Part shown: positions 19,072-24,000 of the stretch, one piece after another | Position numbering within the stretch: position 1 is the stretch's first letter | Layout of the letters: every line of letters starts with the position of its first letter | Assembly (NCBI GenBank): GCA_032251035.1 | Contig: JAVVEV010000023.1 | Location: forward strand, 7,545 to 31,544 | DNA length: 24,000 nt | Direction: 5' to 3' | Source of the DNA: Thiogranum sp. | Lineage (GTDB): Bacteria > Pseudomonadota > Gammaproteobacteria > DSM-19610 | Position numbers and translations under genes: made by a program | Notes under the pieces: model-generated | What the model was told of the DNA's origin: nothing | Database searches by the model: none | What the model saw: the letters and a program-made list of their open reading frames with translations, nothing else

Positions 19072-19540
19072 ATGGAATGCGAACCCGGTGACACCGTAAC
19101 CTCAATCACTCTCCCTGCAATCGACGGCTCGATCTTTGACCTCACAGTCTCAAGGGCAGACCCTTCATGTTGTCTTTCTTCCGGTTTGCCTCGTGCCCGT
19201 TCTGCAATCTGCGCGTGCACGAACTGGTGACGAAGTTCGATCAACTCCCGGAGGGATTCACCATTGTTGCCGTTTTCGATTCGCCGCTGGATAACCTTCA
19301 GCGCCACGCAGACCGGCACCATGCCCCGTTCCCGATCCTTGCCGACGAACGCGGTGACTGCTACAAGCGCTATGACATCGAACATTCCGTGACTGGCGTA
19401 TTGAAAGGCATGATTTTTCGTATGCCGAAGTTGCTGTATGGCATGTTCGCGAAAGGGTGCTTTTGTTCACGGTCGTACGGAATCTACACGCGACTTTTCT
19501 ATCCTGCCTTTCTCAACGGTGGCACTTTCCGGTGTGAATC
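19072..19540 (+). pseudogene. Peroxiredoxin-like (redoxin/AhpC-TSA fold) gene, frameshifted and 3'-degraded
   Basis: An AAGGAG RBS precedes the ATG at 19072, giving MECEPGDTVTSITLPAIDGSIFDLT in one frame. The sequence SLKGRPFMLSFFRFASCPFCNLRVHELV...APFPILADE...RMPKLL continues in another frame. A single missing base near 19141-19147 would join them. Beyond about 19455 the similarity becomes patchy, and the frame then reads without a stop through the antisense of the TA genes to 19907. The 3' boundary is approximate. Confidence 0.6.
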
Positions 19541-19806
19541 CATGGCGTGCCAAAGATCCCAGTCGCGCTGCAAGGTTCAACCAGAATTCAAAACCCGTCT
19601 TGAGCGCCTCACCCAGCGCCAGTGCCGAATCCGCACTGACCTGGCGACGCCCGTTGATCACCTCGTTAAGGCGCGCATACGTCCAGCCGAGGTGCGCGGC
19701 GAAGGGCGGTGTCAAAGCTGGTACTCATATAGCCTTTGCGAACAGGGTGGACAAGATCCGCTCTGCTCTGCGCGATGGCAATTGCTTCAAGGCGCCGGTC
19801 CTTCAT
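19467..19806 (-). pseudogene. HigA-family (XRE HTH) antitoxin-like gene, apparently frameshifted near its 5' end
   Basis: The frame from 19715 encodes ...AAHLGWTYARLNEVINGRRQVSADSALALGEALKTGFEFWLNLAA, an HTH plus the HigA-type FWLNL tail. A different frame from the ATG at 19806 carries ...LVHPV..., a possible HPGE-like N-terminus. Removing one base from the A3 run at 19714-19716 (plus strand) joins them. Alternatively it is an intact 82-aa protein from the TTG at 19715. Confidence 0.45.
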
Positions 19807-20110
19807 GGACCCACTTCGCGACAGTCAACAGTCGCTCGCTGCGCCAGACGCGGACGATCCTCACGCGCGTGGGATCGCGTCGATATATGATTCGGAACGG
19901 CGGATGAATAAGTTCACGCAGAAAAGGCTGATCGAATTCGGGCACGACCCGTCCCATATCCGGATGATTCGCCAGCGCCTGGATACGCTGGATCACCTCG
20001 TCCACCAGTCTCATTCCGACGTCCGGCACTCTTTGCTCCAGATACCAGCTCTTGACTTCCTCGAGATCGCGTAGCGCCAACTCAGTGAAGCTGATGACCG
20101 TCCTGGCCAC
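19787..20110 (-). CDS. parE: RelE/ParE-family type II toxin (ParE-like)
   Basis: 107 aa. The sequences FTELALRDLEEVKSWY...HPDMGRVVPEF...LRELIHPPFRIIYRRDPTRVRIVRVWRSERLL are typical ParE. It starts 4 nt after the Phd/YefM gene. Confidence 0.8.
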   Translation of the reverse strand: MARTVISFTELALRDLEEVKSWYLEQRVPDVGMRLVDEVIQRIQALANHPDMGRVVPEFDQPFLRELIHPPFRIIYRRDPTRVRIVRVWRSERLLTVAKWVHEGPAP

Positions 20111-20114
20111 GACG

Positions 20115-20384
20115 CTATTTCAGTCCGAGCCGCGTCTTCGCCTCTTTAAGCGATACCTCGCGCCCTGCCTCCAGGTCCGACAATCCTGCGACCACGGCGC
20201 GCATGAAGGCTCTTTCTTCCTCGGCTTTCTCGTAATCGCTGACGGACTGGACCACGGCGACACCCCTGCCCCGGCTGGTGAGCAGCACGGGCCGGTGGGC
20301 CTCGGTAGTGTGCTTCACCACGCGCCCTGGATTCACCTTCAGGTCCGACAGAGGAACAAGATCCTCGGAAAATTTGATGGTCAT
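20115..20384 (-). CDS. Phd/YefM-family type II antitoxin
   Basis: 89 aa. The sequences LSDLKVNPGRVVKHTTEAHRPVLLTSRGRGVAVVQSVSDYE are the typical Phd/YefM N-terminal fold. It is followed by the toxin gene. Confidence 0.8.
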   Translation of the reverse strand: MTIKFSEDLVPLSDLKVNPGRVVKHTTEAHRPVLLTSRGRGVAVVQSVSDYEKAEEERAFMRAVVAGLSDLEAGREVSLKEAKTRLGLK

Positions 20385-20759: not shown

Positions 20760-20972
20760 CTAGTCAATCTTGACTGTTCGTCGTTTGGCTGTTGCGATTT
20801 TGGGCATCGTCAGCTCCAGCACCCCGTCCTTGAACTTCGCCTTTACTTTTTCGGTGTCCACATCACTCGGAAGGGGTACTGTGCGCGCATCCAGGTTGTC
20901 CTTATCCACACCCGTCAGCTGAGGACACGAGCAGGTCTGCTGACCGCGATCTCTTTGCTTTCCTTCTTCTCT
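20760..20972 (-). pseudogene. Remnant of an Hsp20/alpha-crystallin small heat-shock gene
   Basis: There is no start codon. The frame directly following the groEL stop reads ...LTGVDKDNLDARTVPLPSDVDTEKVKAKFKDGVLELTMPKIATAKRRTVKID then stop. A PGV-D-K..L-like strand is joined directly to the C-terminal LP..VD...(I/V).A...DGVL.L..PK motif, with the middle of the alpha-crystallin domain missing. An N-terminal-like piece (EEKKESKEIAVSRPA) lies in another frame. Confidence 0.5.
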
Positions 20973-22605
20973 TCAATAACCGCCCATTCCTTCCATCCCA
21001 GGCGGCATGGGACTTTCTTTCCTGGGCGCCTTGGCGATCATGGCCTCCGTCGTAATCATCAAGCCCGCAATGGACGCGGCATTCTGCAGGGCCACGCGTA
21101 CCACTTTGGTGGGGTCAAGTATACCCATCTTGATCATGTCGCCATACTCGTTGGTCTGGGCGTTATAGCCGTAGTTCCCTGCTTGCTCCTTCACCTTGCT
21201 CAGCACCACGGATGGCTCCACACCCGCGTTAGCCACGATCTCGCGCAGCGGCTGCTCCATGGCACGCAGTACGATTTTGATGCCGACAATCCTGATCAGG
21301 ATTGTCGCCCTTGAGGCGCTGCGCCTGCACGGCCTGCATGACCCGAATCAGCGCGACGCCCCCGCCCGCGACTACGCCCTCTTCGACGGCCGCTCTTGTG
21401 GCGTGCATGGCATCTTCCACGCGATCCTTTTTCTCCTTCATCGCCGTTTCCGTCGCGGCGCCGACCTTGAGTTCGGCGACGCCGCCGACGAGCTTCGCGA
21501 GTCGTTCCTGAAGTTTCTCTTTGTCGTAGTCCGAGGTGGCATCGTCGATCTCGCGACGGATCTGCTTGATGCGCGCCTGGATCGCTTCGGGCGCGCCAGC
21601 CCCACCGATCAATGTGGTGGTGTCTTTCGTGACAATGATCTTACGGGCGGAACCGAGATCATCCATGCTCGCCTTTTCCAGGCTCAGTCCGGTCTCTTCG
21701 GATATCACCTCGCCACCGGTGAGAACTGCGATATCGTGCAGCATGGACTTGCGCCGGTCCCCGAAGCCGGGTGCCTTGACGGCCGCCAACCTTATAATCC
21801 CGCGCATCGCATTGACCACCAGAGTCGCCAGCGCTTCTCCCTCGACATCCTCGGCAACGACCAGCAACGGTTTGCCGGCCTTGGCGATGGCCTCCAACAA
21901 GGACAACACATCACGGATGTTGGACAGCTTCCTGTCATAGAGCAGAAGAAGGGCATCCTCCAGTTCCGCGCTCATCTCGTCAGGCTTGTTGATGAAATAG
22001 GGTGACAGAAAGCCACGGTCGAACTGCATGCCCTCGACAACCGTCAGCTCGTTGTCCATCCCAGTGCCTTCCTCTACGGTGATAACGCCTTCCTTGCCCA
22101 CCTTGTCCATAGCCGAGGCAATCAAACCACCGATCTCCTCGTCACCGTTAGCCGAAACTGTCCCCACCTGCGCGATCGCCTTGCTGTCCTTGCATGAAAC
22201 CGAAATCCGTTTCAGTTCTTCCACCGTGGCGTCGACGGCTTTGTCGATGCCGCGTTTGATATCCATGGGATTCATTCCGGCCGCCACCGATTTCAATCCT
22301 TCCTGAAAAATGGATTGAGCCAGCACCGTTGCCGTGGTAGTTCCATCGCCGGCGATCTCCGAGGTCCTGGCTGCCACCTCTTTGACCATCTGCGCGCCCA
22401 TGTCTTCGAACCGGTCTTCCAGTTCGACTTCTTTGGCGACGGAGATGCCATCCTTGGTCACTACGGGAGCGCCGAACGGCCTGTGTATCACCACATTCCG
22501 CCCGCGCGGGCCCAGTGTCGCCTTGACCGCCTGTGCCAGAATCGCCGCGCCACGCGCCATGCACTGGCGGGCGTCATCCCCAAATCTCAGGTCCTTGGCT
22601 GGCAT
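20973..22605 (-). pseudogene. groEL: GroEL (Cpn60) paralog, interrupted by a +1 frameshift; no groES upstream
   Basis: The start is the ATG at 22605 ([13 protein letters not shown]) with a GGAGGTG RBS. Classic GroEL sequence runs through ...GGGVALIRV...LKGDNPDQD, then the frame is lost at plus-strand position 21288. The C-terminal part ([22 protein letters not shown]...[28 protein letters not shown]...GMEGMGGY) continues in the next frame to 20973. Total length is 1633 nt, one more than a multiple of 3. Confidence 0.8.
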
Positions 22606-22716
22606 CGGTGTCCACCTCCATTGGTAATGTTCGTCATGAGCTGTGCCGTAGACTTTTCGCCGGGTTTCGTAGTCTGTCGTCAAAACCTCATACAGATCCA
22701 GGTCTGTCAGGCTAGC

Positions 22717-23712
22717 TCAACTTTGTGTTAGCAATTCCACCAGCGACTCGCCGCGATGCACCCGCCGGATGGCCCGCGCGAACAGCGAGGCGGCATCGAG
22801 CTGGGTCAGCTTGTCACGCACAGCCGTCGATGTCAGCCGCAACGGCGGCAGGGTATCAGTCACGGCCAGGGCCTCGATGTCGGGCGTGGCCAGCACCCGA
22901 TCGGCGGCACTAGTGAACACGCCGTGGCTGGCCGCCGCCAGTACCCGCGCCGCGTCCTGGCGAATGCAGGCCTGTGCCGCCCGCGCCAGGGTGCCGCCGC
23001 TGCTGATCAGGTCATCGATGAGGATGACCTGCCGGTTCGCGACCTCGCCCACCAGCGTCTCGCCGCGCACCACACCGGCGCTGCGCTGCTTCTCCATGAA
23101 GGCCCCGCCCACCGGCCGGCCCAGGCGCTGTTCCAGTGCCTGGCGGAACAGCTCGGCCCGCTTGACGCCGCCCACGTCCGGAGACATCACCACCACCTCC
23201 TTATCGTCACCCAGGCGATTTGAAAAGTAGTCCATGAACAAGGTCCCGGCCTCCAGGTGGTCAGTCTGGATACGGAACGCGTTCTGGTAGGCCGCCAGGT
23301 TGTGGACGTCCAGGGTCATGACGCTGTCCACTCCCACCGCCTCAAACAGTGCCGCCACATAGCGGCTGGTGACGGGATCGCGTGACTTGGTCTTGCGGTC
23401 TTTGCGGGCATAGCATAAATAAGGAACCACGGCGGTCACCCGTGCCGCCGCGGCATCGCGCAGGGCACCGAGGAAGAACAGCAGCCGCACCAGCCTGTCG
23501 TTGACCGACTGCCCGGCATCGCTGTACAGCGACTGGATTACATAGACATCGCGCCCGCGCACGCTCTCCAGCGGCCGGGTCTTGTGCTCGCCGTCCTCAA
23601 ACTCCCGCTCCTCGTGCTCGCCCAGGGGTGTCTCCAGCGCTGACGCGACCCGCTCACCGAACTTGCGGTCAGCGTTCAGGGCAAACAGGACGGGTGGCGC
23701 GGGATACGGCAT
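22717..23712 (-). CDS. Ribose-phosphate pyrophosphokinase (PRPP synthetase) family protein, divergent paralog
   Basis: I moved the start to the ATG at 23712 ([10 protein letters not shown]). Motifs are [29 protein letters not shown], and the PRPP-binding loop [14 protein letters not shown]. Confidence 0.8.
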
Positions 23713-23720
23713 AACAGTAT

Positions 23721-24000
23721 TCAGGCTGCCTGTTCGCCCAGATAGCGTCCAAACCAGTTCCGCGCCAGCTCGGCCACCTCCTCCAGCTTGCCGGGTTCCT
23801 CGAACAGATGGGTGGCCCCAGGCACGATCTCCAGCCGGCATTCGCCATACAACTGCGCGGCGGCCTCCCGGTTCATCTCGATCACCGCGTGATCCAGCCC
23901 GCCGACGATCAGCAGGGTAGGCGCCTGTACCCGCGGCAGGTTATTCATTGCCAGGTCCGGCCGCCCGCCGCGTGAGACCACGGCCCTGACTACCTGGGGT
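23721..24000 (-). CDS. Alpha/beta hydrolase (dienelactone-hydrolase-like), C-terminal part; 5' end outside the window
   Basis: The frame is open to position 24000. The sequence [12 protein letters not shown]...[18 protein letters not shown]...[19 protein letters not shown] is typical of the DLH-like C-terminus with the catalytic His (GATH). Its stop lies 8 nt before the prs-like start. Confidence 0.65.

Follow-up and report, generated by a model that had tools for sequence, protein, structure and literature searches.

An accessory groEL paralogue of an uncultured gammaproteobacterium (Thiogranum sp.) is interrupted by a frameshift that lies within a perfect 24-bp palindrome, and we consider it probable (roughly 0.7, one- and two-step routes taken jointly) that this 543-aa chaperonin gene was inactivated in vivo by a quasi-palindrome template switch as described by the Ripley model. 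The window, meaning the whole stretch of 24,000 nucleotides that was analysed, belongs to a genome assembly of 72 contigs and 3,077,331 bases (58% G+C, 98.9% completeness). An earlier note on this DNA had claimed a perfect inverted repeat at 21284-21307 coinciding with the frameshift, and its description of both is correct to the base. The sequence at these positions, CGACAATCCTGATCAGGATTGTCG, is identical to its own reverse complement, and the same palindrome was recovered by a genome-wide scan (C15:28828-28851, arm 12). The parts of the site and of the broken gene are as follows.

21284-21307, no strand: spacerless perfect 24-bp palindrome with a TGATCA centre (sequence and genome-wide scan).
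21296-21307, minus strand: donor arm, the 5' arm on the coding strand, reading (GG)C GAC AAT CCT GA, unchanged relative to the closest orthologues.
21284-21295, minus strand: recipient arm, the 3' arm on the coding strand, reading T CAG GAT TGT CG, its outer half unlike that of all relatives.
21287-21289, minus strand: changed bases, TTG on the coding strand (CAA on the plus strand), the reverse complement of the CAA of the donor arm.
21229-22605, minus strand: 5' part of the groEL paralogue in frame A, with 440 GroEL residues, 19 out-of-frame residues and a premature stop at 21229-21231 (open reading frame, Pfam and tblastn).
20973-21288, minus strand: 3' part of the groEL paralogue in frame B, ending in MGGY with the natural stop at 20973-20975 (open reading frame, Pfam and tblastn).

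The interruption of the reading frame is evident from several comparisons. On the minus strand, the frame A open reading frame (21229-22683) runs to LKGDNPDQD and then, as had been claimed, loses the GroEL sequence straight after GDNPDQD, continuing for 19 unrelated residues to a stop. The frame B open reading frame (20973-21260, minus strand) covers the remainder, and its frame stays open further upstream. The Pfam profile Cpn60_TCP1 (PF00118) matches one piece of the gene at profile positions 1-389 and the other at 408-488, so that the chaperonin profile is covered across both, and the GDGTTT nucleotide-binding motif is present. With the GroEL of the close relative L024 as the tblastn query, residues 1-440 were matched in frame A and residues 436-543 in frame B, each at 87%. 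The proposal that removing one A at 21288-21289 would restore GroEL also holds, as joining frames A and B with base 21289 skipped gives 543 codons without a stop. An alignment with 20 homologues from related genomes shows the stretch from the Asp codon to the next GGC to be shorter by exactly one base in all 20. As single-stranded DNA, the palindrome is predicted to form a hairpin (stem of 10 bp, loop of 4 nt) with an energy of -11.5 kcal/mol.

Comparison with intact orthologues indicates which arm has changed. The closest of these are ~81% identical to the window groEL at the nucleotide level and dS is saturated, so the sequence immediately before the mutation is deduced from these relatives. 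The coding strand at the site is given below for the window and its closest relatives.

L189: GGC GAC AAT CCT GAT CAG GAC ATC GGC.
L026: as L189, but with GGT.
L025 and L187: as L189, but with ATT.
L024, the sister of the window gene in the tree (82% bootstrap): GAC AAT CTT GAT CAG GAT ATC GGT.
Window: GGC GAC AAT CCT GAT CAG GAT TGTC GGC.

The donor arm (GGC GAC AAT CCT GAT CAG) is identical in the window, L025, L187, L026 and L189, whereas the recipient arm reads GAC or GAT, ATC or ATT, then GG in the relatives and GAT TGTC GG in the window. The relatives have arms of 0-6 bp about this centre, plus three further complementary bases outside, as compared with arms of 12 bp for the window. Wherever the recipient arm differs, it carries the reverse complement of the donor arm. 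Judged by this alignment, the 5' arm on the coding strand is ancestral and only the outer half of the 3' arm is altered. The expectation in the earlier note that relatives would carry GATGTC was not borne out, since the orthologues encode Asp-Ile with GAC or GAT followed by ATC or ATT. Starting from a GAT codon for Asp, the change is therefore A to TG, and starting from GAC it is CA to TTG; positions 21287-21289 contain both the frame-shifting extra base and the G responsible for a Val codon once that base is skipped. Among 117 aligned members of the family, this column holds Ile in 79, Met in 28, Thr in nine and Val in one, the window itself. The uniqueness of Val makes it probable that several bases were replaced (A to TG, or CA to TTG) rather than one inserted; all of the two to three adjacent differences perfect the palindrome, as read against nearest relatives that are only ~81% identical. 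A templated pattern of several bases, as predicted by the Ripley model (PMC7202029, PMC5941160), is a stronger quasi-palindrome signature than a single inserted base. Thus the claim that the extra base was templated from the other arm, breaking the paralogue, stands as regards the conserved donor arm and the reverse-complement recipient arm, but its single-base form gives way to the likelier multi-base one. Gene conversion from the housekeeping groEL was considered as another source of the new bases; that copy reads GAT AAT CAC GAT CAG AAC ATG GGT and cannot be the donor.

The site thus has the properties expected of a quasi-palindrome mutation, in that the repeat is imperfect in relatives, the complementarity of the arms has been raised, and the new bases match the unchanged arm in reverse complement. 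Under the model, the pre-mutation sequence would have been an inverted repeat of 6-7 bp about TGATCA with a small asymmetric mismatch and three more complementary bases, an arrangement that the closest orthologues retain. The nascent 3' end of the strand with the coding sequence (the minus strand of the window) would have completed the inner part of the second arm, folded back onto the newly made first arm, copied CAA as TTG and then added TCG, before going back to its proper template. The outcome would be the perfect 24-bp palindrome and a net frameshift of +1, so that Asp-440 is followed by 19 missense codons and a stop. One point against the model is that only ~4-6 bp of fold-back would be available when the strand switches.

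The position of the changed bases also bears on the strand of origin. Because the rewritten bases occupy the outer half of their arm, the mutated strand was presumably synthesised from the centre outwards through that arm; the nascent strand would then carry the coding (window minus) sequence and move toward lower coordinates. Over the 47-kb contig, each 10-kb interval has a plus-strand GC skew of -0.05; the leading strand is therefore presumed to be the one with the minus-strand sequence, which would make groEL co-directional with replication; this assignment is taken from GC skew only. The strand bias of quasi-palindrome mutations in E. coli agrees with such a leading-strand origin (PMC7202029). 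We infer that a single event on the leading strand produced the change inside the cell, and that the cell tolerated it since it could by then dispense with the cassette.

A two-step origin is possible but rather unlikely, and its share is counted within the probability given above. Here an ordinary Ile-to-Val substitution would first have given GAT GTC, leaving a one-base bulge in the repeat, and a single templated T would have been added later. Val does occur at this site in more distant GroELs (L013, L017, L011), the column varies within the paralogue family (Ile, Met, Thr), and the bulged precursor is predicted to fold better (GATGTC, -7.6 kcal/mol) than either Ile version (GATATC, -5.6; GACATC, -4.0 kcal/mol). 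Against this, Val is absent from the 116 closest family members, and two independent events would be needed, both of which happen to raise complementarity. The last step would in any case still be a template switch, which makes this route a variant of the template-switch explanation and no true alternative to it.

The coincidence of a frameshift and a perfect palindrome can be given approximate odds. Spacerless perfect palindromes with arms of at least 12 number only five in the 3,077,331 bases of the genome-wide scan, and only ~34 combinations of centre and side are one inserted base short of such a palindrome. Set against ~12 million choices of position and base for an insertion, these give a probability of ~3e-6 per random one-base insertion, so that frameshift and palindrome must be causally linked. 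One-base insertions are a common cause of pseudogenes, and an untemplated insertion by slippage or misincorporation might in principle have chanced upon a near-palindrome. However, no homopolymer run exists at the site, where one T has become TT, and at the odds just given we regard such an accident as barely credible.

The same scan placed two other perfect 24-bp spacerless palindromes within long open frames of 331 and 372 codons (G000:C22:29408-29431 and G000:C66:130389-130412), and both of these frames are unbroken. The longest palindromes in the genome are perfect over 28 bp; one looks operator-like (G000:C72:81368-81395, TTGTCAATGGCGTA/TACGCCATTGACAA) and the other looks like a bidirectional terminator flanked by A/T (G000:C1:45504-45531).

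The window groEL belongs to a distinct and widespread family of 543-aa GroELs which start with MPAKELRFGDD and end in MGGY. Its best database matches are 85-87% identical and all in frame, and the protein search returned nothing above 87% amino acid identity. Exact look-ups of three window products and the neighbouring Phd antitoxin gave no match, and scans of genome and metagenome contigs with generic GroEL patterns returned, among the matches listed, only relatives at 74% identity or below. A search of 33 other genomes of the genus gave an orthologue in a handful, at 80% nucleotide identity in two (the best) and ~75% in three. In the closest relatives the gene is part of a cassette, sometimes beginning with its own groES, followed by groEL and an hsp20 of 165-171 aa. 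This cassette sits in varied genomic contexts (L024, L025, L026, L187), once beside a transposase (Transposase_mut), which suggests that (groES)-groEL-hsp20 is a mobile or often exchanged accessory heat-shock module in metagenome-assembled genomes of sulfur-oxidising gammaproteobacteria. The window groEL is therefore an accessory paralogue. A complete groES-groEL lies elsewhere in the genome, on contig C19. No groES stands between the window groEL and the gene upstream of it, and tblastn with the GroES of relatives matched only the C19 copy. With its frame interrupted and an intact copy present on C19, the window gene looks in these respects like a frameshifted pseudogene.

Apart from the frameshift, the gene carries the marks of constraint. 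Against seven orthologues, the window groEL has pairwise dN/dS values of 0.067-0.099, at near-saturated dS. When omega is split over three taxa, the window branch has ~0.09 and its sister ~0.05, a roughly twofold difference that is weak evidence. Private changes at columns conserved in at least 98% of the family number three in the window gene, compared with a family median of one and a 95th percentile of five. Relaxed selection was thus not found in groEL itself, where dN/dS is ~0.07 and private changes fall within the range of the family. As groEL is otherwise intact and constrained, the lesion (if real) is therefore recent and the only one. In having a single lesion it is unlike its neighbours, and whether it was free from selection beforehand is uncertain.

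The genes around groEL are in a visibly different state, and the following features frame the broken gene.

20760-20974, minus strand: hsp20 remnant directly behind the groEL stop (tblastn at 20974-20918 and 20885-20763; alignment with the intact hsp20 of L024, L025 and L026).
19072-19456, plus strand: AhpC/SelL-like redox gene copy that has lost 1 nt near 19141-19149 and also its 3' end (homology to an intact paralogue on C16).
19787-20384, minus strand: intact phd/yefM-parE toxin-antitoxin pair amid the decayed stretch (Pfam PF02604 and PF05016).
22717-23841, minus strand: ribose-phosphate diphosphokinase-like gene upstream of groEL, with no groES between (context).

The hsp20 remnant has suffered three deletions: one removed the start codon together with the intergenic region, one ~60 codons from the centre, and the last, which is in frame, another 35 codons. 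Three fragments are left of a gene that is intact in close relatives; the Pfam HSP20 profile matches only at positions 59-101 of 102. The AhpC/SelL-like copy is 77% identical in nucleotides and 89% in amino acids to its intact paralogue (G000:C16:31629-32200), and the homology stops abruptly at 19456, beside an inverted HigA-like fragment that is without its N-terminus. It looks like a duplicated gene in the course of being lost. When its 1-nt deletion was checked for a quasi-palindrome, no clear inverted repeat was seen there. Deletions of 100-190 bp are no read errors, and there is therefore real decay within 10 bases of the groEL stop.

These neighbouring lesions matter for the reading, named as the alternative in the earlier note, in which the break in groEL is technical and the genome is truly in frame. 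The extra base, or the whole TG or TTG change, would then have arisen in vitro: a polymerase or end repair might have switched template at the hairpin while the library was prepared or amplified, or the error might have entered in consensus building or polishing. Library preparation is known to yield chimeric reads with mismatched bases at inverted repeats and palindromes (PMC10908179), inverted repeats and GGC trigger sequence-specific miscalls on Illumina instruments and both are present at the site (PMC3141275), and the otherwise perfect preservation of groEL is as expected of a gene that is really intact. However, the library artefacts are reported at low allele frequency and not as consensus insertions (PMC10908179), and the Illumina errors at inverted repeats and GGC are strand-specific substitutions, again not consensus insertions (PMC3141275). 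A de Bruijn assembler would not be expected to generate k-mers that are absent from the reads; contig ends in this assembly, searched for overlaps of fixed length, gave lengths of 20 (three times), 30 and 77, and there is one 100-N gap. Random indel errors would perfect a palindrome with the same probability of ~3e-6. The lesions are also clustered in one 2.3-kb stretch and include the deletions of 100-190 bp, which read errors do not explain, and long open reading frames tile the first 18.9 kb of the window with no obvious break, as seen without checking the genes individually. An artefact of reads or consensus is thus unlikely, if to be taken seriously, and a real, recent and tolerated mutation is the likelier account.

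The hairpin and frameshift might also be read as a functional element, serving either programmed ribosomal frameshifting or a reversible on/off switch. A hairpin of RNA or DNA would be stable here, and perfect palindromes are genetically unstable, which makes reversion conceivable. All 116 relatives are in frame and without the palindrome, however, and the neighbouring genes are plainly decaying, so that we give a functional element next to no weight. Programmed ribosomal frameshifting in particular was rejected, as no slippery heptamer precedes the hairpin, the shift lies within the stem and not upstream of it, and the relatives are in frame. Marginally less improbable, though still very doubtful, is a contingency locus, in which the near-palindrome and the perfect palindrome would interconvert by frequent template switching and mixed alleles would toggle a spare chaperonin.

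An in vivo template switch, the preferred reading, has well-characterised precedents. The quasi-palindrome model goes back to work on T4 rIIB and yeast CYC1 (Ripley 1982, as cited in PMC7202029 and PMC5941160), and the mechanism has bacterial precedents in thyA and rpsL (PMC7202029, PMC5941160). As in rIIB and CYC1, an imperfect inverted repeat was hit in the window, the bases gained match the reverse complement of the other arm, the repeat has become a perfect palindrome, and the frame is shifted along with a change of base. Laboratory selection and genetic confirmation lie behind those cases, whereas the present one is deduced from a single environmental assembly and its relatives. In E. coli, a natural quasi-palindrome hotspot in thyA and the lacZ QP5/QP6 reporters are described (Viswanathan 2000; Dutra and Lovett 2006; Seier 2011; all as cited in PMC7202029). 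The window resembles these in that a bacterial chromosomal gene is altered by a templated change that perfects a palindrome, with a suggested leading-strand bias; it differs from them in arm length and spacer, its product being a spacerless palindrome of 24 bp, and in being known from sequence alone.

Comparative studies offer the nearest parallel in method. Imperfect inverted repeats corrected to perfect ones have been identified in Proteobacteria by comparative genomics (PMC5941160), and arm homogenisation has been described in yeast coding sequence (PMC8604942). As in those studies, the argument here proceeds from a repeat that is imperfect in relatives and perfect in the focal genome. The changes found there were mostly in non-coding repeats or were multinucleotide changes in frame, unlike the correction in the window, which destroys a conserved chaperonin frame. 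The library-preparation artefacts also resemble the window change in kind, as they are palindrome-related single-nucleotide variants and indels, there false, made by an in vitro analogue of strand switching; those occur at low allele frequency in reads, whereas the window change is in the assembled consensus (PMC10908179).

With an in vivo template switch as its cause, the locus is a fresh natural instance of a mutation mechanism known since 1982, and it brings no new mechanism or system. Provided that the allele is real, the locus gives a neat natural case of a templated multi-base mutation, with a conserved donor, a rewritten recipient and a strand of origin open to deduction, and the mutation would be the sole lesion in a strongly constrained chaperonin paralogue of an uncultured gammaproteobacterium. 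The locus may be useful in teaching or for benchmarking template-switch detectors, and annotation pipelines should tell such events from sequencing errors. For the organism itself, the decayed neighbours and the intact groES-groEL make the loss of this groEL look tolerated rather than consequential, and the consequence would be mild, as the cell retains its housekeeping groES-groEL.
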